Of a stretch of DNA of 64,000 nt, positions 7,028-35,751 are shown one piece after another (position 1 is the first letter of the stretch; every line of letters begins with the position of its first letter). Origin of the DNA: Candidatus Kerfeldbacteria bacterium (GTDB lineage: Bacteria > Patescibacteriota > Patescibacteriia > SBBC01 > CAIJZX01); assembly GCA_016193315.1 (NCBI GenBank), contig JACPSJ010000001.1, positions 471,478-535,477 on the forward strand, in the 5' to 3' direction. The position numbers and the translations under genes were made by a program. A model generated the notes under the pieces. That model worked only from the letters and a program-made list of their open reading frames with translations, ran no database searches and had not been told where the DNA came from.

Positions 7028-8674
7028 ATGCGTCGCTCCCGGGTCTGGTTCAGTTTTGGCTCCATTGTTGTCCTGGCTTTGTTAGCTGGCTATGTTGACT
7101 GGCCACAGGCACCGAAGCTAACCTTCCCGCCATTCAACCGGTCGTTCCCGCTCCGTCTCGGCCTTGATATTCAAGGCGGCAGCAGTTTGCTGTACGAAGC
7201 CGATGTCAGTAAAGTTCCGGCTGGAGATCGAGATTCGGCCTTGGCCGGTGTGCGCGATGTGATTGAACGCCGGGTCAATGCTTTTGGCGTGGCCGAGCCG
7301 GTGGTCCAAACCAGCCGGGTCGGTGGGCATTACCGCGTGGTGGTGGAACTGGCCGGTATCCATGACGTCAACGAGGCCATCCGTCAAATCGGCGAAACGC
7401 CGCTGTTGGAGTTCCGTAAGCCAGCCGGTCTACCAGACGCCGAAGCGAAGGCCAAGGCCGAAGAAGTACTGGCCAAGGCCAAGCAAGCAGGCAGTGATTT
7501 TTCCGCCCTGGCCAAAGAGTTTTCCGACGACCCCGGCAGTCGCGACCGGGGTGGAGATTTGGGTTTTGCTCGCCCCGGACAGTTTGTGCCAGAGTTCGAG
7601 CAGGCCTTGTTCGATCAATTGACCGTCGGCCAAATCAGCGACCAAACGGTAAAATCAAAATTCGGGTACCACATTATCAAGAAAATAGAAGAACGCGAGG
7701 TGGACGAGGACGAAAAGAAAATCAAGGAGGTTCATGGGGCCCATATCCTAATCGCCAGTCTCGAAAGTTCTCAAGAGGTCGGTAACTACCTGCCGACGAA
7801 ACTGTCGGGGAAACAGCTGCGACGGGCGGACGTGACTTTTGATCCGAATACTGGGGCGCCGGAAGTACAGTTGCAATTCAACGCCGAGGGATCAAAGTTA
7901 TTTGCCGAATTGACGAAGCAATACCTCCAGCGAGTGATTGGCATCTATCTGGATGGCCAGCCAATTAGTCTGCCGGTCGTCCAGTCAGAAATCACCTCTG
8001 GCACGGCGGTCATCACCGGCAACTTCAGTCTCGACGAAGCTAAGCAGTTGGCCCGGCGTTTGAACGCCGGGGCGCTGCCAGTGCCAATCACCCTCGTGAG
8101 CCAGCAGAACGTTGGCGCCAGTCTTGGGCAGTCGGCCGTGGAGCGAAGTTTTGCGGCCGGTTTGCTGGGGCTGGTTTTCGTAGCGGTGTTCATGATCTTG
8201 TACTATCGATTACCTGGCTTGCTGGCCGTCGTGGCCCTGGTGATCTACAGCCTGCTGGTGCTGGCGATTTTTAAGCTCTGGCCGGTGACCCTGACCTTGG
8301 CCGGCATGGCCGGCTTCATCCTCTCGATCGGCATGGCCGTCGATGCTAATATCCTCGTCTTTGAACGAACCAAGGAGGAGCTCCGCGCCGGACGACCATT
8401 ACGGTCGGCGATTGATGAGGGCTTTCGGCGAGCCTGGTTGTCGATTCGTGACTCCAACGTCTCCAGCCTGATTACCTCCTTCATTTTAATTTGGTTTGGC
8501 ACCAGCTTGGTCAAGGGTTTTGCCTTGACCCTAGCCATTGGGATCCTGGTATCGATGTTTTCCGCCTTGACGGTCACCCGCACCTTTCTGCACCTGGTGA
8601 CTGGCCCATGGATGGGCCGGCATTTGTGGCTCTTTGGCGTCTCCAGCGCACCAGCGACTTCGTCCGATGTTTAG
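7028..8674 (+). CDS. secD: Protein translocase subunit SecD; its periplasmic P1-head region carries parvulin-like motifs
   Basis: N-terminal TM plus SecD P1 base motifs ([25 protein letters not shown]) and the C-terminal 6-TM SecD core. The internal segment has GGDLGF ... FGYHIIK ... AHILIA motifs. Confidence 0.9.
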
Positions 8675-9572
8675 GATCATCCAAAAACGCCGCTGGTTGT
8701 TTATCCTGTCACTCCTAATTTTGGTACCAGGGCTGGTGGCGCTCGTTCGATTTGGCCTCAAGCTGGGCATTGACTTTACGGGCGGGACGCGAATGGTAGT
8801 TGCCTTTAGCGGGGACCGACCGAGCGGAACGTCGGTCATCGCCACGGTCAGCGATTTAGACCTCGGCCAAGTGACCACCCAAACCGCGGGTCAGAAAGAA
8901 ATGGTCTTGCGGTTGTCGAGCATCAGTAATGACCAACGTCAGCGCCTGCTGGAGCGATTGCAGGAGAAATTTCCGGGCGCGATGGAAGCCAGTTTCGATT
9001 CGATTGGCCCAACCATCGGCGCCGAACTGCTCCGCAAGGCCTATCTAGCCCTCGGTCTCGTGTTGCTGGCCATCGTGGTCTACGTCAGCTGGGCTTTCCG
9101 GCGGGTCAATGTCGGTCCGGTACCGGCCTCAGTCTACGGTTTGTCCGCCATTGTCGCCTTGGCCCACGATGTCTTGGTAGTGGTCGGCATTTTTGCCATC
9201 CTCGGTCACTATCGTGGAGCGGAAATCGACAGCCTGTTCGTGACCGCGGTCCTGACGGTGCTCGGTTTTTCGGTCCACGACACGATCGTCGTCTTCGACC
9301 GCATTCGCGAACGACTTTTGATCGGTGGTGAGTCGACATTTGAAGACACCGTTAACGTCAGCCTCAACCAGACGCTCACCCGGTCACTCAATACCTCACT
9401 GACCACCTTGTTTGTCCTGGTAGCCCTCTACCTTTTTGGCGGCGAAACGATCAAGTATTTCGTCCTGGCTCTGATCATCGGTATCGTTTCCGGCACCTAC
9501 TCCTCGATTTTCGTGGCCTCGCCATTACTGGTGGTCTACGAAGGCTGGAAGCGGCGGCGGGCACATCGCTAA
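8667..9572 (+). CDS. secF: Protein translocase subunit SecF
   Basis: [26 protein letters not shown] ... GIDFTGGT ... SecF signature. ATG at 8667 overlaps the secD end. Confidence 0.9.
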
Positions 9573-9715
9573 CATCCACGAACGAGCTCTGACGTTTTTG
9601 TTGGCAACAGAGTCTTCTTTCTGTACAAAACAGAGAGCAGTTTTCTTAGATGCTGGTCTTACAGAGCAGCACCACTGGACTATTGGGTCAGCTATGTTAC
9701 TATCACCCACGGAAC

Positions 9716-11049: not shown

Positions 11050-12444
11050 ATGGACATTTCGATCGTCATTCCGGAGTTCGCCAACCCCTTCGCTGCGCTG
11101 TGGTGGGCCTTTACCCACGGCGGTTTTATCATTGTCATCATTGCCCTCGGCTATGGCTTCTGGTGGATCTACCTCCAGGCGATTCAGATTCGTTTTTTGA
11201 CGAGGCGGCGCTATGTCTTACTAGCCATCGATGTGCCCAAAGAGAACGAACAGACCCCCAAAGCGGTTGAGCACATCTTCAGTCACTTTTCTGGCATCTA
11301 CCGTCAGGCCAACCTGGTTGAAAAATATGTCCACGGTTATGTCCAGCTGGCCATTAGCGTCGAACTCGTTTCACTCGGCGGCTACATCCAGTACCTCGTC
11401 CGTTGTCCGGCCGAGCACCGCGACTTGGTGGAGGCGGCCATCTACGCCCAGTATCCTGAGGCCGAAATCTCCGAAGTCGAAGACTATGCCTTTCAAGTCG
11501 CCCCCAAATTCCCGAACGATGAATACGACGTCTGGGCGTCCGAACTCGAGCTGACGAACAAAGAGGCCTACCCGATTCGCACCTATCCTTTGTGGGAACA
11601 CCCGTTAACGCAGACATTCCTGGACCCGATGGCGGCGTTACTGGAAGTTTTGGCCCGCCTCCGGGAAGGCGAACAAATCTGGTTACAGTGGGTCATCCGT
11701 CCACCGGCGAACGACCGCTGGCGGGAACGTGGCTTGGACCTGATTAACAAGCTGATCGGCGCGAAAGTCAAACCCAAGCGCGGCGCTCTTGATGTCCTGG
11801 TCGATACGCCAAGCAATGTCCTGATCGGTACCTACGAAACGATCACCCGGACACTGTTCGAACCAACTAGCGTCACCCAACGGCAGGAGAACGGACCGCC
11901 CAGCCTGATGCAACATTTGGCGCCGAACGTGCGGGCCGTGGTCGAAGGGATCGGTATCAAGATCTCGAAAACCGGCTTTCAAACGAAGGGCCGATTCGTG
12001 TACCTCGGTCGGAAAGATGTCTTCGATCGCACGCGAGTGAACGCCATTTTCGGTGCCTTGCGACAGTTTGCTTCGATGGACATGAACGGTTTCAAGCCGG
12101 ACAAGAAAATGAAAACGAAGCGGAATTATTTTCGGGTTGAGCAGCGAGAAGCAGTCTTGAAACGGCGGATCATCCTCGGCTATCGCGATCGTAGCCTATG
12201 GGCCGGGCGCTCGACGTACGTGCTGAACATCGAAGAGCTGGCCTCGGTTTGGCACTTCCCCGTGCGGACAGTCAAGGCGCCGCTGGTGAAGAAGACTGAA
12301 GCCAAGCGGGGCGAGCCGCCAAGCGCCCTGCCGCTCGGTCAGTTGCCGGAACGGCCGGCCACGCCAACCATGTCTAGCCCCGGGCCCGCCATCGCCCCCG
12401 GTCCGACGCGCGGCGCGGCACCCGAAAACCTGCCAGTCGCCTAG
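11050..12444 (+). CDS. Membrane protein of unknown function (N-terminal TM helices plus about 400-aa soluble domain), partner of the downstream ATPase
   Basis: 464-aa ORF with hydrophobic N-terminus (FAALWWAFTHGGFIIVIIALGYGFWWIYL). Stop lies 2 nt before the next start. No recognised family. Confidence 0.6.
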   Translation: MDISIVIPEFANPFAALWWAFTHGGFIIVIIALGYGFWWIYLQAIQIRFLTRRRYVLLAIDVPKENEQTPKAVEHIFSHFSGIYRQANLVEKYVHGYVQLAISVELVSLGGYIQYLVRCPAEHRDLVEAAIYAQYPEAEISEVEDYAFQVAPKFPNDEYDVWASELELTNKEAYPIRTYPLWEHPLTQTFLDPMAALLEVLARLREGEQIWLQWVIRPPANDRWRERGLDLINKLIGAKVKPKRGALDVLVDTPSNVLIGTYETITRTLFEPTSVTQRQENGPPSLMQHLAPNVRAVVEGIGIKISKTGFQTKGRFVYLGRKDVFDRTRVNAIFGALRQFASMDMNGFKPDKKMKTKRNYFRVEQREAVLKRRIILGYRDRSLWAGRSTYVLNIEELASVWHFPVRTVKAPLVKKTEAKRGEPPSALPLGQLPERPATPTMSSPGPAIAPGPTRGAAPENLPVA

Positions 12445-12446
12445 CC

Positions 12447-14141
12447 ATGCCCGACACTACTGCTGACAATCCGGTCCTGACCCTCTTCGCGACCACTAAT
12501 TTCCGTGGCGTGAAGCGGCCGTTCGGCATCAAACTTGATGATCGGCGGCGTCACATGTATATCATCGGCAAAACTGGGATGGGCAAGTCGACGATGTTGG
12601 AGAATATGATCATCCAAGATATTCGGGCTGGCCGTGGCTTAGCCGTAGTCGACCCACACGGCGATCTAGTCGAGAAAATAGTTAAGTTCATTCCCTCGTA
12701 CCGGGTCAATGATGTGGTCTATTTAAATCCGGCCGACGCCGACTACCCGATCGCCTTCAACATCCTGGAAACGATCAATCCCAGCCAGCGCCACCTGGTG
12801 GCTTCGGGGTTAATTGCCGTCTTTAAGAAACTGTGGATCGATTCGTGGGGGCCGCGGCTGGAATATATCTTGCGGAACACGATCCTGGCCCTGATCGAAT
12901 ACCCCGGCTCGACGCTCCTGGGCGTGACCAGGATGCTGGTCGATAAAGAGTACCGCCAAAAAGTTGTCCGGCACATTACTGACCCGATTATCAAAGTCTT
13001 TTGGCAAACTGAGTTCACCGCTTACGCTAACCAATTCCGAACTGAAGCAGTGGCCCCAATCCAAAACAAAATTGGGCAGTTCCTCTCGAGCTCGATCATC
13101 CGCAACATCGTCGGCCAGCCGAAATCGACCATCGACATGCGCGAGATCATGGATAACGGTAAAATCCTGCTGCTTAATTTGGCCAAGGGCCGGATCGGCG
13201 AAGATAACGCCGCGCTCCTCGGGGCGATGATGATCACCAAACTCCAGGTGGCCGCCATGAGTCGGATTGATGTCCCCGAGAACGAGCGCCGGGATTTCTA
13301 CCTCTACGTTGATGAATTCCAAAACTTCGCCACCGAGTCATTCGCCAACATCCTCTCAGAAGCCCGGAAGTATCGGCTCGACCTGATCATTGCCCACCAG
13401 TACATCGAACAGCTCGATGAGACTGTCCGGGCCGCCGTTTTCGGTAACGTCGGGACGCTGATCTGTTTTCGCGTCGGAGCCGCCGACGCCGAGTTCCTGG
13501 CCAAGGAATTCTTTCCGGTCTTCACGGAAACTGACTTGGTTAATCTGACCAAGTTCGACATGTATCTGAAACTGATGATTGATGGCGTGGCCTCCGAACC
13601 TTTTTCCGCCACCGGCCTACCACCAGTGGATAAGCCGGATGAACTCCAAGACCGGATTATCCGCGTCTCCCGGGAGCGCTATGCCAAGCAACGAGAGGTA
13701 GTCGAGGAGAAAATCTCTCGCTGGTCAGGGATGATGGTCGAAGCCGCGCTCCAGGAAGGCGGCCGGCCCGAGGGTCGTGGTCGCCGAGAATCAGGCGGCC
13801 CGGGGCCGGCCGAAACCCGCGACGGCACACCGAAACCCGCGGTGGAAATACAGAGTCGTCAGCCAGTCGTGACTGAGGGTATTCCCGCGCCCATCTCGCT
13901 GAGCCAGGCGCTTCGTCCAGATTCGCCGCGCCCCGGCCCAGATCGGCCGCGCCGGGATCGACGCCGGCCTCCCCGTCATCGCCCGCCGCCGCGGGCACCA
14001 GCGGCAACGACCGAAGCGGCGTCCATGCCGACGGCCACGAGTCGGCCACCACCGCTGACGCCGCCATCTCCACTCAGTCCAACCCCGCCGACCCCAAAAC
14101 CGTCCCCCCTCCAACCCGGTCAAGTCGTCCATCCATTATAA
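12447..14141 (+). CDS. TraG/VirD4 (T4CP)-like / FtsK-HerA superfamily P-loop ATPase with Pro/Arg-rich low-complexity C-terminal tail
   Basis: Walker A YIIGKTGMGKST. Walker B FYLYVDEFQNF. About 130-aa tail rich in P/R/T (PRRDRRRPPRHRPPPRAPAATT ... PTPPTPKPSP). Confidence 0.65.
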   Translation: MPDTTADNPVLTLFATTNFRGVKRPFGIKLDDRRRHMYIIGKTGMGKSTMLENMIIQDIRAGRGLAVVDPHGDLVEKIVKFIPSYRVNDVVYLNPADADYPIAFNILETINPSQRHLVASGLIAVFKKLWIDSWGPRLEYILRNTILALIEYPGSTLLGVTRMLVDKEYRQKVVRHITDPIIKVFWQTEFTAYANQFRTEAVAPIQNKIGQFLSSSIIRNIVGQPKSTIDMREIMDNGKILLLNLAKGRIGEDNAALLGAMMITKLQVAAMSRIDVPENERRDFYLYVDEFQNFATESFANILSEARKYRLDLIIAHQYIEQLDETVRAAVFGNVGTLICFRVGAADAEFLAKEFFPVFTETDLVNLTKFDMYLKLMIDGVASEPFSATGLPPVDKPDELQDRIIRVSRERYAKQREVVEEKISRWSGMMVEAALQEGGRPEGRGRRESGGPGPAETRDGTPKPAVEIQSRQPVVTEGIPAPISLSQALRPDSPRPGPDRPRRDRRRPPRHRPPPRAPAATTEAASMPTATSRPPPLTPPSPLSPTPPTPKPSPLQPGQVVHPL

Positions 14142-18200: not shown

Positions 18201-18228
18201 ACCGCTTGGAAAGAGCGGTCTTTTCTTG
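18201..18228 (+). terminator. Rho-independent terminator
   Basis: accgct-tggaaag-agcggt stem-loop followed by cttttctt. Confidence 0.55.
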
Positions 18229-18243
18229 TACACTATCGGTAGC

Positions 18244-20070
18244 ATGACCGCCCAGAAAATTCGCGACGAGTTCACCAAGTTTTTCGTCAAACACAGCCAC
18301 ACTCCTTTGCCTTCTTCGTCGCTCGTCCCGGACAACGACCCGACTGTCTTATTGACGACGGCCGGCATGCAGCAATTCAAACCGTACTTCCTGGGAGAAA
18401 AAGACCCGGTCAAAGAGCTGAAAACAAAACGCGTCACTACGATTCAAAAATGTTTTCGCACCTCGGACATCGAGCAGGTTGGTGATCCTTCGCACCTGAC
18501 GTTTTTTGAAATGCTCGGTAATTTCAGTTTTGGCGACTACTGGAAAACCGAAGCCATCGATTTGGCCTGGGAATTCCTCACTCAGAAACTCCACTTACCC
18601 GCCAGCCGACTGTGGGCGACCGTTTTTTCCGGCCATGGCACGATCCCGCGGGACCGAGTGGCGGAGCGGGCGTGGGCCAAGCATTTGCCGAAGTCTCGGA
18701 TCGTAGCCCATGGTCGGTCTGATAACTTTTGGGGACCGCCGGGCACGACCGGCTCCTGCGGCCCGAGTTCGGAAATTCACTGGCAGCTGGTTGAACAGCC
18801 GCAGGGCAAGCCCGGCGGCGACAACCCGGAATTCGTGGAGCTGTGGAACCTGGTCTTTACCGAGTATTTCCAAGATGAGCGCGGCCGGCTGTCTGAATTG
18901 CCGAAACGCAATATCGACACCGGCTTAGGCTTGGAGCGGTTGGCCATGGTGGTCGAACAAAAAAATCATGTCTTCGAAACCGACATTTACCAACCGCTTA
19001 TCCGTCAACTCCGTCAGCTTGAATCGTTCGGCCGGACTAGCCAACTTGATCTCGACCGCCGTCGCGAGCGAATCGTAGCCGATCATCTCCGCGGGGCGGT
19101 GTTCCTGTTGGCCGATGGCGTCCGTTTCTCGAATAAAGACCAGGGCTATATCCTGCGCCGGATTGTTCGTCGGGCCGCCGACCAGTTTCTCCAACCCGAG
19201 TTCAGTCTTGACCCGCTGGTAACTATCCTGATCATCCACCACCAGCGCTATCCAGAGTTGAAACGTCAGGCTGCCTCGATACAGCAACAGCTGGCAGATG
19301 AACTTGAACTCTACCGCCGGGTGCTGAATCTCGACGTCGCGTCGCTAGTTAAGAAATTGCGAAAATCGAAGCCGCGGGCCCAAAGCGAAGTAGAAGTCCT
19401 GGCCGGTCCTTCGCATGCCAATTTGTCAGCCGACGAAGCCTTCACCCTGTACGCCACACACGGTTTGTCGCTCGATCGTTTACAACGGCTCGGCTACATC
19501 TTCGATCAGCCGATGGTGGAACGTAAAATCGCCGCCCACCAAGAAATCTCCCGGGCTGGGGCGACCAAGAAATTCGGCGGCCACGGGCTGGGCCATGGAC
19601 CGGAGACGAGCGGTTTGAGCCAAGACCAAATCTGGCAAGTAACGCGGCTCCATACGGCCACCCACCTCCTGCACGCCGCCCTACGGCAGGCGCTTGGCAC
19701 CCAAGTCCGGCAGAACGGCTCAGACATTACGCCCGAACGGCTGCGCTTCGATTTTACCTTTGATCGGAAACTGACTGATGAAGAAAAGCTACGGGTGGAA
19801 AACCTGGTCAACGAGAAAGTCAAGGCCGATCTGCCGGTGAAATGGGAAGTCATACCGTATCAGCAAGCGATCGACCAGGGGGCGCTGGCATTTTTCAAGG
19901 AGAAATATGGCGACCAGGTCAAAGTCTATACGATCAATGACTTTTCAAAGGAACTTTGCAACGGCCCGCACGTCGAACACACCAACCAGGTTGGTAAATT
20001 CAAGATCACCGCTGAACAGTCAATCGGGCGTGGCCTACGTCGGATCAAAGCCGAAGTTCAGTCTCCATGA
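18244..20070 (+). CDS. alaS: Alanine--tRNA ligase (AlaRS) lacking the C-terminal C-Ala domain
   Basis: Class II catalytic core (FTKFFVKHSHTPLPSSSLVP ... TTAGMQQFKPYF), tRNA-recognition region and editing domain with HxxxH (HTATHLLHAAL) and CxxxH (CNGPHV). Ends directly after the editing domain. Confidence 0.9.
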   Translation: MTAQKIRDEFTKFFVKHSHTPLPSSSLVPDNDPTVLLTTAGMQQFKPYFLGEKDPVKELKTKRVTTIQKCFRTSDIEQVGDPSHLTFFEMLGNFSFGDYWKTEAIDLAWEFLTQKLHLPASRLWATVFSGHGTIPRDRVAERAWAKHLPKSRIVAHGRSDNFWGPPGTTGSCGPSSEIHWQLVEQPQGKPGGDNPEFVELWNLVFTEYFQDERGRLSELPKRNIDTGLGLERLAMVVEQKNHVFETDIYQPLIRQLRQLESFGRTSQLDLDRRRERIVADHLRGAVFLLADGVRFSNKDQGYILRRIVRRAADQFLQPEFSLDPLVTILIIHHQRYPELKRQAASIQQQLADELELYRRVLNLDVASLVKKLRKSKPRAQSEVEVLAGPSHANLSADEAFTLYATHGLSLDRLQRLGYIFDQPMVERKIAAHQEISRAGATKKFGGHGLGHGPETSGLSQDQIWQVTRLHTATHLLHAALRQALGTQVRQNGSDITPERLRFDFTFDRKLTDEEKLRVENLVNEKVKADLPVKWEVIPYQQAIDQGALAFFKEKYGDQVKVYTINDFSKELCNGPHVEHTNQVGKFKITAEQSIGRGLRRIKAEVQSP

Positions 20071-29214: not shown

Positions 29215-29373
29215 CTCCGGTCCCAAATAACAAATCCCAAGGAAGCCCCAATAACCGAAATTCGAATGATCAAAATATATTTTCGAGCAAAAAGTATTTC
29301 GGTCATTTGATGATTGGTTATTCGGACTTGTTTGGAATTTGGTGCTGGGCATTTGGGATTTAATTGAGTATGT

Positions 29374-29763: not shown

Positions 29764-30060
29764 TGAACCGGGAGGGAACGTTAAGAATCTGCCAGCGCGT
29801 GGATTTTCAGCCGGCCACGATCAGGATGAGTCATCACCAGGGGTTTGGAACGGCTGGAACGGTCCGCCGCTGAGTCGGTCTAACCGCTAACCGACGGTCG
29901 AGACCACCAGCTTGCTTGGCCAGGGCAGGAGGAGTACTCTGTGAGGGATGGAGGGCCTAGCCCTTTGTTAGCTGTTATCCACATGGGGCGCTGACTTCCC
30001 GCATCAAGGACGCGCCGATTACTTCATTGGGGATTCATTTATTATATTAACTGCACGCTT

Positions 30061-31791
30061 ATGATGCATAGTCCGCAGCGCATTCTCAGGGTTGGTCTCC
30101 GCCGGGGAATCTTGGGTGTCGTCAGCTTGGGGGCACTACTTCTACTGGCAGTGGCCAGCCAGCTCGAAACCGTTCAGGCCGCGGCGTTCACCGTTAACAG
30201 TACAACCGATAGCGTGGACATCAGCCCCGGTGACGGCGCCTGTGCTGATAGTGCTGGCGATTGTTCCCTCCGCGCGGCCATTATGGAGACCAACGCGCTT
30301 CCAGGGGCCGACAGTATTACCCTGCCCGCGGGCACGTACACGATCAGCATGGCCGGAATCGGCGAGGACGCTGCTCTGAGCGGCGATCTTGATATTTCCG
30401 ACGACTTGATTGTTTCCGGCGCTGGTGCGGCCGCCAGCCTGGTTGACGGGGGCGCGATCGACCGGGTGTTTGAAATACGTCCAGGGGCGACAGTCCATCT
30501 CCGTTGGCTACGCACGCAGAACGGCGACCCGGTGGCCAATGCCGGCGGCATCCTCAATCATGGGGACCTAACCCTTACTCGCGTTACAGTCACTAACAAT
30601 ACTGGACAGAATTTTGGCGGTGGCATCGCCAACTTCGGGACGATGTCAATTGGGTATTCAACCATCAGCCACAACGACACGGTCGGTGCTAATCTGAGTG
30701 GCGGCGGAGGCGGGATCTACAATGAAGGCACGTTGACCATAACGGGTAGCACCCTAAATGATAACACCACACTTGGACGCGGTGGAGCTATCTATAACCT
30801 TGATCAAACGCTGACGTTGACTAATAGCACGCTCAGTACCAACACGGCCCTAAACGGCGGGGGCATTTTCAACCGCTTCGGAACTGTCACCAGCACCCAT
30901 CTCACCATTACTAACAACACGGCGACCGACAATGGCGGCGGCGTTTGGAACTTCGGCGGAACAATGTCATTGGGCAATACTGTCATCAGTGGGAACAGCG
31001 CCGCCACGGCTGCAGACGATTGCGCCGGCGCGATCACGTCCCTCGGATATAATCTGGCCAGCGATGCCTCCTGCGGGCTTGGCGGAACCGGCGACCTCAA
31101 CAGTACGAACCCCATGCTGGGGCCATTGGCCAACAACAGCGGTCCGACCTTCACGCACGCGCTGCTCACTGGTAGCCCAGCAATTGATGCCGTTCCCCTG
31201 ATCGCCTGCACCGTCAGCACTGATCAACGCGGCGTCCCCAGGCCGATGGGTCCAGCCTGCGATATGGGCGCGTTCGAACGAGTGGTGCCGGAGGCCTGTA
31301 ATAACGTAGCCTTTGACACCATCATTGTTGGCACGGCTGGAAATAATACACTGAACGGCGGAAATGGCCGCGACTTGATCTTCGGCCTAGGCGGTAATGA
31401 CGTGTTGAACGGCAGTAATAATGACGACTGTCTGGTCGGCGGCTCCGGCCACGATCGCCTCAATGCCAGTAATGGCAATGACTACCTTGATGGCGAGGCG
31501 GGTAATGATCGACTGCACGCCAGCAACGGTAACGACACCCTGGTTGGCGGGGACGGCCGCGATGCGCTCAGCGGCAGCAATGGGATTGATCACCTTGACG
31601 GTGGCCTGGGAAACGACACCCTCTCCGGAGGGAACGGTGATGACGTCCTGGATGGCCATGACGGCGACGACCGGTTGTTCGGAGACAACGGCTACGACAC
31701 GCTGAGTGGCGGCGCCGGTACGGACAGGCTCGACGGTGGACTGGGCATAGATTCCTGCATTGGTGAGATCGAACTGTCCTGCGAGATATAG
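30061..31791 (+). CDS. Secreted CSLREA-domain / right-handed beta-helix protein with C-terminal RTX-type calcium-binding repeats
   Basis: Signal peptide. CSLRAAI motif (CSLREA N-terminal domain). Repeated NxxGGGI beta-helix turns. Tandem GGxGxDxL nonapeptides (GGNGRDLIFGLGGNDVLNGSNNDD ...) at the C-terminus. Confidence 0.75.
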   Translation: MMHSPQRILRVGLRRGILGVVSLGALLLLAVASQLETVQAAAFTVNSTTDSVDISPGDGACADSAGDCSLRAAIMETNALPGADSITLPAGTYTISMAGIGEDAALSGDLDISDDLIVSGAGAAASLVDGGAIDRVFEIRPGATVHLRWLRTQNGDPVANAGGILNHGDLTLTRVTVTNNTGQNFGGGIANFGTMSIGYSTISHNDTVGANLSGGGGGIYNEGTLTITGSTLNDNTTLGRGGAIYNLDQTLTLTNSTLSTNTALNGGGIFNRFGTVTSTHLTITNNTATDNGGGVWNFGGTMSLGNTVISGNSAATAADDCAGAITSLGYNLASDASCGLGGTGDLNSTNPMLGPLANNSGPTFTHALLTGSPAIDAVPLIACTVSTDQRGVPRPMGPACDMGAFERVVPEACNNVAFDTIIVGTAGNNTLNGGNGRDLIFGLGGNDVLNGSNNDDCLVGGSGHDRLNASNGNDYLDGEAGNDRLHASNGNDTLVGGDGRDALSGSNGIDHLDGGLGNDTLSGGNGDDVLDGHDGDDRLFGDNGYDTLSGGAGTDRLDGGLGIDSCIGEIELSCEI

Positions 31792-32552: not shown

Positions 32553-32581
32553 TTGACAGGGGGCGCAAACCGTCGTATAAT
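32553..32581 (+). promoter_or_regulatory. Consensus sigma70 promoter (TTGACA-N17-TATAAT) for the infA-rpmJ-rpsM-rpsK-rpsD-rpoA-rplQ-rplM-rpsI operon
   Basis: ttgaca 32553-32558, exact 17-nt spacer, tataat 32576-32581. About 100-nt leader with a long imperfect hairpin (ctcgggcagaat ... attcttgcctgccgag). Confidence 0.6.
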
Positions 32582-33490: not shown

Positions 33491-33940
33491 ATGATTGACC
33501 ACGGACTCGATTCTCATCAATCGGCGCCAGCCAGCGATACGAAATCTACACCGGCCGCGGCGACCCTGAAGTCGAAAAAGCCGAAGAAGAAATTCGTCAC
33601 CCACGGTCAGGCGCATATTCAAGCGACCTACAATAATACCATCGTCACGATTACCGATCAAAACGGTAACGTTTTAGCCTGGTCGTCGGCGGGGAAAGTT
33701 GGTTTCTCCGGACCGAAAAAAAGCACCCCCTATGCGGCCGCGATTATCGTCCGCGACCTGGTCGAACGTATCCGGCCAGTCGGCCTGAAGCAGATTGACG
33801 TCTTTGTCCGCGGCGTCGGTTTGGGTCGGGAGGCCGCTATCCGGGCGCTCGTCGCCCAGGGGCTGACCATCAACATCATCAAAGACTTGACGCCGATGCC
33901 GCATAATGGTCCGCGGCCGCCACGGGTTCGCCGCGTATAA
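33491..33940 (+). CDS. rpsK: 30S ribosomal protein S11 (with N-terminal extension)
   Basis: [42 protein letters not shown] ... S11 signature. ATG at 33491. Confidence 0.9.
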
Positions 33941-33944
33941 AGTC

Positions 33945-34562
33945 ATGGCTCGCTACACCGGTCCCAAACTGAAACTCTCCCGCCGCTTCGGTCAAGCCCT
34001 GTTTGGCACCGCCAAGGAAGCCAAAGTTCTCCAGCGTCGAAATTACCCACCTGGCCAGCACGGCCCGGCCGCCAGTGGACGGCAGTCCGAGTACGCGCTC
34101 CAACTGCGGGAAAAGCAAAAAGCCAAAATTATGTACGGGCTACTGGAGCGGCAATTCCGTAAGTACTTTTCCGAGGCCTACAAGTCGAGCGGCGACACCG
34201 GTGTACAGCTGTTGCAGCTTTTAGAACGTCGCCTTGATAATGTGGTCTATCGCCTCGGCTTGGCCTCGACCCGGGCTCAGGCTCGACAGCTCGTTAACCA
34301 TGGGCATGTGGTAGTGAATGGCCGGCGAGTTGACGTCCCATCGTATCGAGTCAAAGTCAATGACGTCATTGGCGTTAAACCCCAGAGTTCAACTCTCACC
34401 CATTTTACGACGCTTGCTAAATCGCTTGAAAACTACCAGCCACTGACCTGGCTCGAACTGAACAAAACAGCACTCTCGGGTCGAGTCACTGGCTTACCAG
34501 AAGGCAGTCAATTGGAACAGACTATCAGCCCACAATTGATCGTCGAGTTTTATTCGCGTTAA
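33945..34562 (+). CDS. rpsD: 30S ribosomal protein S4
   Basis: [16 protein letters not shown] ... S4 N-terminus and S4 RNA-binding domain. Confidence 0.9.
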
Positions 34563-34573
34563 CCGCCGCGTCT

Positions 34574-35395
34574 ATGGAATCGATTCCTTTACCGCGCAAC
34601 ATCGTGCAGAAAACCATGGGTCCGCATCGTAGCGCCTTTACGATTGAGCCGCTGTACCCCGGCTACGGCACGACGTTGGGAAATACGTTGCGCCGCGTAT
34701 TGCTATCATCGCTACCAGGCGCCGCCATTACCGCCGTTAAAATCGAGGGGATCAACCACGAATTCTCGGCCATTCCAAAAGTCAAGGAAGATGTGGTCGA
34801 TATCCTCCTCAATGTGAAACAGATACGGCTGAAAGTTCACCGCGACGAGCCGCTGACCGTCCACCTGAAAGCAAAAGGCAACAAACCAGTGACCGCCGGA
34901 GATCTGGAAAAGAATGCGGATTTGGAAGTCGTCAATCCAAAGCAGCCGATTGCCACCCTGACCGACAAAACAGCCAGCTTCGAGATGGAATTGACTGTGG
35001 CCCGGGGCCGGGGATATGTGCCGGTCGAGAACCGCGAGAAAGATCGACTGCCGATCGGCACCATCGCCATCGATGCCATTTATACGCCGGTCAAGAATGT
35101 CAATTTTACCACCGAGCATGTGCGGGTTGAACAGATGACAAATTTTGACAAGCTTATTCTTGATATCACCACCGACGGTAGCCTGACACCGGATGAAGCC
35201 TTACGGCAGGCCGCCTCGATCATGGTTGAACACTTCCAATTTGTCCTGACCGGTCCCACCGAGACAGCGGCGATGCCCACCATTCCCGATCCGACCAGCG
35301 AGCCCGAGCCGGATGCGACGGCGACTGAGAAACAGAAGAAGAAACCGAGCCGTCGAAAAAAAGATGATCAGTCGGCAGCCACCGAGGAGACCTAG
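34574..35395 (+). CDS. rpoA: DNA-directed RNA polymerase alpha subunit, N-terminal domain only (alpha-CTD absent; ends in low-complexity tail)
   Basis: alpha-NTD of about 225 aa conserved. The remaining 46 aa are PTETAAMPTIPDPTSEPEPDATATEKQKKKPSRRKKDDQSAATEET, with no alpha-CTD helix-hairpin-helix. Confidence 0.9.
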   Translation: MESIPLPRNIVQKTMGPHRSAFTIEPLYPGYGTTLGNTLRRVLLSSLPGAAITAVKIEGINHEFSAIPKVKEDVVDILLNVKQIRLKVHRDEPLTVHLKAKGNKPVTAGDLEKNADLEVVNPKQPIATLTDKTASFEMELTVARGRGYVPVENREKDRLPIGTIAIDAIYTPVKNVNFTTEHVRVEQMTNFDKLILDITTDGSLTPDEALRQAASIMVEHFQFVLTGPTETAAMPTIPDPTSEPEPDATATEKQKKKPSRRKKDDQSAATEET

Positions 35396-35397
35396 GC

Positions 35398-35751
35398 GTG
35401 CGACACCGGAAGGCCAAGCGGACGCTTGATCGCACGAGCGCGCAGCGCCAACGCCTGTTGCGTAACTTGGCCGTGGCCCTAATCATCAATGGCCGGATCA
35501 CCACCACGCCGGCGCGGGCGAAGTTAGTTCGCCGTTTTGTCGAACGACTTATTTCAACTGGCAAACAACCCACGCTAGTTCACCGCCGTCAACTGCTGCA
35601 AGCCTTGCCACACCGTCCGGCCGTGCAGGTTATTCTCCAGCGTCTGGCTCCCCAGTTTCAGCGCCGTGCTGGTGGCTACACCCGGCGGTCGAATCTTGGG
35701 CGTCGGGCCGGCGACGGAGCCGAACAGGTGAAACTTGAATTTATTGAGTAA
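35398..35751 (+). CDS. rplQ: 50S ribosomal protein L17 (GTG start)
   Basis: RHRKAKRTLDRTSAQRQRLLRNLAVALIINGRITTT ... L17 signature. aggaga SD-like sequence upstream. Confidence 0.9.
   Translation: MRHRKAKRTLDRTSAQRQRLLRNLAVALIINGRITTTPARAKLVRRFVERLISTGKQPTLVHRRQLLQALPHRPAVQVILQRLAPQFQRRAGGYTRRSNLGRRAGDGAEQVKLEFIE

Follow-up and report, generated by a model that had tools for sequence, protein, structure and literature searches.

An RNA polymerase alpha subunit from Candidatus Kerfeldbacteria that ends in a disordered tail with a conserved basic block in place of the carboxy-terminal domain

The alpha subunit of bacterial RNA polymerase (RNAP) is encoded by rpoA, and a form of this gene whose product lacks the carboxy-terminal domain (CTD) lies in a 64-kb stretch of a Candidatus Kerfeldbacteria genome (contig JACPSJ010000001.1), which is referred to here as the window. 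The open reading frame (ORF) occupies positions 34574..35395 of the plus strand, runs from ATG to TAG and encodes 273 amino acids; it was identified from the reading frame itself, the TIGR02027 model and matches to alpha subunits in the PDB. An identical protein is annotated as the alpha subunit in a Candidatus Kerfeldbacteria metagenome-assembled genome (MAG), on an 857-kb contig. Directly 5' of rpoA is rpsD, encoding ribosomal protein S4 (33906..34562, plus strand; PF00163 and PF01479). Ribosomal protein L17 is encoded by rplQ on the other side (35398..35751, plus strand; PF01196, Ribosomal_L17, E=3e-25), and since the GTG start of rplQ at 35398 is only two bases past the rpoA stop codon there is no room for a CTD downstream. 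The gene order rpsK-rpsD-rpoA-rplQ is the canonical one for the alpha operon, and related loci are arranged alike. A sigma70-type promoter with perfect consensus hexamers and 17-nt spacing (TTGACA-N17-TATAAT; 32553..32581, plus strand) is predicted 100 nt upstream of infA and likely drives transcription of infA-(rpmJ)-rpsM-rpsK-rpsD-rpoA-rplQ.

Judged by every criterion other than the CTD, the window protein belongs to the RpoA family. Its amino-terminal domain (NTD; residues ~10-225; 34601..35248, plus strand), which contains the dimerisation and insert domains, was delimited from PF01193, PF01000 and an AlphaFold model. The Rpb11/RNA_pol_L dimerisation fold (PF01193) matches residues 25-221 with E=4e-25, and the RpoA insert domain (PF01000) matches residues 55-171 with E=3e-33. 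The protein passes the rpoA equivalog TIGR02027 (281.2 bits, cut-off 227.8) as well as NF003519 (294.6 bits, cut-off 277), and scores below the cut-offs of six further rpoA equivalog models because the CTD part is missing; the NCBIfam rpoA models align to it only up to about position 230 of their 300-340 positions. All 60 of the PDB alpha subunits listed align to residues ~10-248 only, with E values down to 5e-63. AlphaFold2, given a 57-sequence alignment, assigns a predicted local distance difference test score (pLDDT) >90 to most of residues 10-225. Two arginines, R40 and R41, which our own alignment pairs with E. coli R44/R45, are invariant in the 57 relatives. The alpha-NTD, which is the nucleator of core assembly and which the original prediction had called well conserved, is fully conserved, and the gene is a genuine rpoA of the single-copy type belonging to the Kerfeldbacteria (Patescibacteria, 'Parcubacteria group').

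The alpha-CTD is a helix-hairpin-helix domain of about 70-85 amino acids (PF03118), for which there is no match in the window RpoA even at E<=1. A first search of the six reading frames of the window with the E. coli CTD found nothing, and a CTD profile built by iteration from the E. coli domain reached no better than E~5 across all six translated frames of the 64 kb. As a positive control, the same profile detects the CTDs of five genomes of the candidate phyla radiation (CPR) at E<=7e-14. A CTD hidden by a frameshift or encoded downstream was rejected on the strength of these six-frame searches and of the way in which rplQ abuts rpoA. The earlier claims that the alpha-CTD is absent and that rplQ, which starts 3 nt on, leaves no downstream CTD have withstood examination. 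Of the two observations named there as refuting, no frameshift restores a CTD, and no separate ORF for one was found in the 64-kb window or in the 13 related loci described below, where it was sought. An Rfam search of the window gave no match.

The truncation is lineage-wide and is not an artefact. Among the 120 best homologues (54-100% identity), which lie on contigs of up to 1.18 Mb, 118 are 234-296 amino acids long and lack PF03118. One of the two exceptions (P0090) has 305 amino acids and a long K/E-rich tail. The sole close match with PF03118 (P0068) was rejected as a relative: it is a Bacilli-like protein of 448 amino acids, encoded on a 2.5-kb contig of the European Nucleotide Archive (ENA), and ~130 residues of its NTD are duplicated internally. 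It ranked high only through its doubled NTD and is probably an assembly artefact. When the 150 best representatives of clusters formed at 50% identity were considered, 80 possessed the CTD and about 30 were genuine short forms, and the tails of the remaining CTD-less-looking representatives resembled the products of frameshifted or chimeric assemblies. GTDB species-representative genomes contributed 13 CTD-less loci, in all of which rplQ follows rpoA (at -13 to +21 nt in 12 of them and at 93 nt in one), and the iterated profile found no CTD in any frame of these loci. The truncation is thus shared by relatives of the window genome, and we regard it as all but certain that the CTD has been lost in reality and across the lineage.

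CTD-less loci include those of Veblenbacteria (L001), Uhrbacteria (L009), Magasanikbacteria (L013) and several MAGs of the 'Patescibacteria group'. Other members of the CPR keep the CTD, among them Andersenbacteria (L019), Gribaldobacteria (L021), Parcubacteria GW2011_GWF1_45_5 (L018) and two further loci (L002 and L004), as do all 62 loci with a non-CPR label (Chloroflexota, Bacteroidota, Clostridia, Nitrospirota and others). Since NCBI taxonomy places both the CTD-less Kerfeldbacteria and the CTD-bearing Andersenbacteria in the 'Parcubacteria group', the loss is widespread but not universal there. In a neighbour-joining tree of 309 alpha-NTDs (219 columns), CPR members with and without the CTD are intermingled, with 16 parsimony changes; we take this number as a sign of poor resolution between one loss and several rather than as evidence of 16 events. 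Six loci from MAGs labelled 'uncultured Gammaproteobacteria' or 'Candidatus Saccharibacteria' (L010, L016, L057, L002, L011 and L014) carry a CPR-type rpoA and group with Patescibacteria in the same tree, and their taxonomic labels look unreliable.

The 48 residues that follow the NTD (residues 226-273) have pLDDT values of 52-58 and no secondary structure in the AlphaFold2 model. This tail has three parts, all on the plus strand. Residues 226-252 (35249..35329) form an acidic linker rich in Pro, Thr, Ala and Glu that is predicted to be disordered from the AlphaFold model. Residues 253-263 (35330..35362) form a basic block, KQKKKPSRRKK, recognised by its clustering of Lys and Arg and by the conservation of its position; K263 is retained in at least 90% of the 57 aligned sequences. 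Residues 264-273 (35363..35392) are a short acidic end, DDQSAATEET, delimited from the sequence and from the enrichment of Asp and Glu past the block in the family. The original prediction described the tail as acidic/basic low-complexity sequence. That description holds to the extent that the tail is disordered and contains no CTD, but it does not do justice to a basic block (K253-K263) that is conserved in position and that is an AT-hook in 14% of the relatives.

The tails of 119 close relatives, compared from the last NTD helix onward, have a median length of 44 amino acids and follow a common plan in which an acidic linker leads to a basic block and then to a few acidic residues. The linker is rich in Ala, Thr, Pro and Glu, with a median of 28 amino acids and a net charge of about -7, and is variable in sequence, no residue exceeding 38% at the positions before the block. 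The block has the family consensus [DE][DE]KPKKKx[KR][KR]KK, and a profile anchored on it reads [DE][DE]-K71%-P80%-K92%-K83%-K67%-x-[KR]73%-[KR]84%-K91%-K50%. At least six Lys or Arg residues are found within some 9-residue stretch in 103 of the 119 tails, and the mean maximum per 9 amino acids is 6.34, as compared with 3.49 +/- 0.06 in shuffled tails. As a control, the interdomain linkers of 92 non-CPR alpha subunits were inspected, and one reaches 6 Lys or Arg in 9 residues. When 167 CTD-less tails were classified, the block was strong in 107, weak in 16 and absent from 21, while the other 23 had the motif [KR]GRP[KR]; in about 80% of these tails the acidic linker leads to a conserved basic block. 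Block-bearing genomes range from 38% to 57% GC and block-less tails occur in genomes of 40-53% GC, and the block is therefore not a by-product of AT-rich coding. It is probable that the block is under selection.

The [KR]GRP[KR] motif, typically as KKRGRPKK, stands at the position of the block in 14% of the CTD-less tails. RGRP occurs in 22 tails, whereas 0.01 would be expected from tail composition. The 13-residue Pfam AT_hook model (PF02178) aligns exactly at the KKRGRPKK site in four of the five relatives tested. It has no match in P0002, a close relative with a KPK-type block, or, at E<=1, in the window RpoA. In the NTD tree the AT-hook forms consist of one clade of 12 (Veblenbacteria) and of small groups nested among KPKKK forms, and from this nesting AT-hook and KPKKK look like interchangeable versions of one element.

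Other replacements and combinations are found in the CPR alphas. One cluster (P0221, 332 amino acids) has two HeH/SAP/Rho_N-like repeats after an acidic linker in place of the CTD; the repeats give consistent sub-threshold matches to SAP_new25 (E=8e-5), Ish1 and Rho_N, and the gene (L086, 641-1639) stands in the canonical context rpsD-rpoA-rplQ-rplM-rpsI. P0169 has an acidic linker and a KPKK-type block ('...AKPKKVKKVTKKK') followed by an intact PF03118 domain, and P0192, P0161 and P0130 likewise have an acidic linker and a KPKK-type block before an intact CTD. It is possible that these four proteins are evolutionary intermediates toward the CTD-less form. Long histone-H1-like Lys-rich tails occur in the distant clusters P0224, P0257, P0262 and P0215.

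The alpha-CTD reads UP elements and serves as a docking site for class I activators of the CRP type, and E. coli is inviable without it. The original prediction concluded that loss of the domain implies no UP-element recognition and no class I activator contacts. Activator contacts of the type made by a folded CTD are indeed impossible for the window protein. Given the conserved basic block and the AT-hook in 14% of relatives, however, the absence of any contact with upstream DNA does not follow from the loss of the CTD, and DNA contact of a cruder, tethered kind is no less likely than none. The basic block could be a minimal DNA-binding peptide on a flexible linker of ~27 residues, and this linker could bring it to the DNA upstream of the -35 element, which is the usual place of the CTD. 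The contact would be electrostatic or made via the minor groove, and in the GC-rich window genome it would have little or no sequence specificity; relatives with a true AT-hook would be expected to prefer AT-rich DNA. AT-hooks bind the minor groove of AT-rich DNA, a kind of target that is shared with the contact between the alpha-CTD and UP elements. RNAP would in this way keep a crude upstream anchor and lose the surface for class I activators and for UP-element recognition.

What speaks most strongly for a DNA tether is the conservation of the block beside a linker that varies freely, together with its repeated exchange for modules known to bind double-stranded DNA (AT-hook, HeH/SAP). These observations point to replacement of the CTD by a minimal DNA tether and not to loss alone. 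We infer DNA binding by the block, its action at promoters and the absence of activator contacts via alpha from sequence comparisons, and the likelihood that the block contacts promoter-upstream DNA appears to us to be evenly balanced. A broader proposal is more tentative and, in our judgement, somewhat less likely to be right than wrong: in much of the CPR, minimal disordered peptides that bind DNA and are held on an acidic tether (KPKKKxRKKK, AT-hook or HeH/SAP) may have taken the place of the alpha-CTD, perhaps on several occasions, giving an upstream contact made by a peptide and no class I regulation. If this is true, the forms with both block and CTD would be evolutionary intermediates.

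Several observations weigh against a DNA-binding replacement. The AT_hook scores of the relatives are 9-13 bits, below the 17.4-bit cut-off, and the block of the window protein, which has no GRP core, is not an AT-hook as defined by RGRP. Disordered K/E-rich segments are common in CPR proteins generally. The block is missing from 21 of the 167 CTD-less tails (13%), for example in Uhrbacteria L009, L010 and L012, and is therefore dispensable in some lineages; L009, L010, L012, L016 and L046 (given as Uhrbacteria) keep only 7-26 acidic or neutral residues past the NTD. In the window, no UP-like signal was found upstream of six well-matched predicted sigma70 promoters (n=6). The 23 bp upstream of the -35 element at these promoters average 38% A+T as compared with 43% in the background, an A4/T4 run occurs upstream of only one of the six, and intergenic tracts of A and T (W-tracts) are only marginally denser than composition predicts. 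With six consensus-matched promoters, the absence of AT-rich upstream DNA is a weak argument against any sequence-specific reading of A+T in this genome. As a separate observation, the most AT-rich spacers of the window, at 29215-29373 and 29764-30060, reach 62% A+T and contain W-tracts of 12-14 nt (e.g. AAAATATATTTT and ATTTATTATATTAA). A DUF1801 gene lies between the two spacers, and the gene for a 576-amino-acid RTX calcium-binding-repeat protein comes after them at 30061-31791.

It is conceivable that the CTD was simply lost, in which case the tail would be the decaying, functionless remnant of a linker, and promoters in a reduced genome with few regulators would be recognised through the -35 and -10 elements alone. 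The consensus -35/-10 promoters of the window with no AT-rich DNA upstream of them are in keeping with this explanation, as are the short acidic tails that are all that 13% of the CTD-less relatives possess. CTD-less alpha subunits are moreover tolerated in Hodgkinia, Tremblaya and Euglena plastids, and E. coli RNAP without the CTD assembles and carries out basal transcription (PMC8321222). A decaying remnant does not, however, account for an 11-residue block that stays at a fixed place though the NTDs are only 45-55% identical and the linker is free to vary. Nor would a neutral remnant be expected to become an exact AT-hook repeatedly, and the block is nearly absent from non-CPR linkers (1/92). 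We consider plain loss rather unlikely.

Alternatively, the block could be functional and have a target other than promoter DNA, such as RNA, an acidic partner (a delta-like protein or the sigma-r4/HARE-HTH protein described below) or its own acidic linker, with which it would form an electrostatic switch. Acidic residues invariably border the block, and the linker before it has a net charge of about -7; an acidic flank next to a basic binder is a layout known from auto-inhibited DNA or RNA binders, the acidic tails of HMGB proteins being an example. The window also encodes a protein with sigma region 4 (sigma-r4) and a delta-like HARE-HTH domain. On the other hand, the AT-hook and HeH/SAP variants are best known as binders of double-stranded DNA, and the candidate sigma-r4/HARE-HTH gene lies 24 kb away. 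A target of this kind is unlikely, more so than plain loss.

It is quite improbable that the CTD is supplied in trans by a separate gene elsewhere in the genome. Split arrangements may exist, as two loci (L084 and L085) carry a CTD-only ORF upstream of rplQ, but no CTD is present in the 64 kb of this genome or in the 13 CTD-less loci, where the controls gave E<=7e-14. When 5.8 billion proteins were searched with a profile of 15 CPR CTDs, 28 short proteins were matched, and 25 of them are annotated with PF03118 and have no alpha-NTD domain. Six of the 28 were inspected: three are 3' ends of ordinary rpoA genes at contig edges, one is split by a frameshift and two are at the normal rpoA position, and none of the six is a stand-alone gene in a CTD-less genome. 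In L084 (232-426; GC 35%) and L085 (243-431; GC 42%), both metagenome contigs of low coverage, the CTD-only ORF of 62-64 amino acids is directly upstream of rplQ-rplM-rpsI. It retains part of a K/E-rich linker, an unrelated ORF lies upstream on the minus strand, and the 230-240 nt that extend to the contig end contain no alpha-NTD; either rpoA is truly split at these loci or the assemblies are chimeric. Although public assemblies do contain frameshifted and chimeric forms of rpoA (some 30 among the 150 representatives, and L083, a frameshift-split rpoA at 2x coverage), a frameshift, assembly error or premature stop in this MAG is effectively excluded by the lack of CTD-coding sequence in any frame, by rplQ 2 nt past the stop codon and by the same architecture in >100 independent assemblies.

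Canonical RpoA proteins, such as those of E. coli, B. subtilis and T. thermophilus (PF01193, PF01000 and PF03118), share with the window protein an orthologous NTD (E of about 1e-57 to 1e-63 to solved structures), the position between rpsD and rplQ and a flexible linker after the NTD. The window protein differs from them in that it has no folded CTD and ends in an acidic linker, an 11-residue block and an acidic end. As with the AT-hooks of HMGA proteins (PF02178), the 23 relatives with K-K-R-G-R-P-K-K, which by pattern are AT-hook proteins, carry the motif on a disordered segment beside acidic sequence. The window block, in contrast, has no Gly-Arg-Pro and is present in a single copy, and the Pfam scores of the relatives are below the cut-off. 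Lys-rich DNA-binding tails and SPKK-type motifs are also found in histone H1-like tails and at the C-termini of mycobacterial HupB and TopA, and these appear to resemble the alpha tail in having a short Pro-Lys-Lys-Lys cluster on a disordered tail.

The alpha-NTD is enough for core assembly and basal transcription, and the CTD is needed for the reading of UP elements and for class I activation (PMC8321222). CTD-less alpha subunits have been reported in Hodgkinia and Tremblaya, and those of Euglena chloroplasts are cited in the same work (PMC8321222); these and the CTD-less alphas of 'Parcubacteria' resemble the window protein in that the NTD is kept, the CTD is lost and the genome is reduced. 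Unlike the window genome, which keeps clear sigma70 promoters, the endosymbionts Hodgkinia and Tremblaya do not have them as described there (PMC8321222). A single sentence of the same paper says of the loss that it 'is also present in Parcubacteria'; the paper gives no data for them and makes no mention of a basic or AT-hook tail (PMC8321222), and the source that it cites for this (PMC4508563) does no more than name rpoA among the core genes and has nothing on its domains. Nominally the remark covers the window, since Kerfeldbacteria are within the 'Parcubacteria group' in NCBI taxonomy, but the loss is not general there, as Andersenbacteria, Gribaldobacteria and GW2011_GWF1_45_5 keep the CTD. 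A full-text literature search found CTD-less alpha in the CPR only in that one sentence of PMC8321222 and in its preprint, and found no description of a conserved basic or AT-hook tail on alpha. Loss of the CTD in a CPR lineage has thus been mentioned in print before and never documented, and the tail of acidic linker and basic block or AT-hook is, as far as we could find, new.

With the conserved tail, the truncation reads less as a simplification through loss than as a possible replacement of the CTD by a minimal tether. The CPR is a very large and environmentally abundant radiation with many CTD-less lineages, which shows that the regulatory layer provided by the CTD is dispensable in nature outside organelles and extreme endosymbionts. 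If the block does contact upstream DNA, these organisms would constitute a natural experiment in minimal domain replacement, and mutations in the peptide or drugs that bind the minor groove would offer a handle on transcription in newly tractable organisms. In annotation, such genes fall below the cut-offs of rpoA models in which a CTD is expected.

The sigma-r4/HARE-HTH protein is encoded on the plus strand at 9650/9770-10960 and was recognised from domain searches; its long form has 436 amino acids. Residues 75-140 of the long form correspond to an RpoD-like region 4, and the best NCBIfam matches are to the C-termini of MzaA and RpoD. The HARE-HTH domain (residues 294-354) is similar to the amino-terminal domain of the delta subunit of Gram-positive bacteria (TIGR04567, 26.7 bits, below the cut-off of 42). 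The domain searches found no sigma region 2, which excludes a sigma factor, and the protein appears to be a factor associated with RNAP or with promoters. The suggestion in the original prediction that this protein might be related to the truncation of alpha finds no support; the gene is 24 kb from rpoA in another transcription unit, where it lies between secF and a pair of genes that resemble type IV secretion genes.

Other features of the window were also noted. In the SecD protein encoded at 7028-8674 (plus strand), SecD_1st and the P1 head subdomain are separated by an inserted PpiC-type peptidyl-prolyl isomerase (Rotamase) domain, and the gene is followed by secF at 8634-9572. The gene pair at 11050-14141 (plus strand) encodes a 464-amino-acid protein that has no Pfam or NCBIfam match and then a TrwB/VirD4-like type IV secretion coupling ATPase. 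Alanyl-tRNA synthetase (18226-20070, plus strand) has only 614 amino acids, comprising the catalytic domain and tRNA_SAD, and the usual C-terminal extension is apparently missing.

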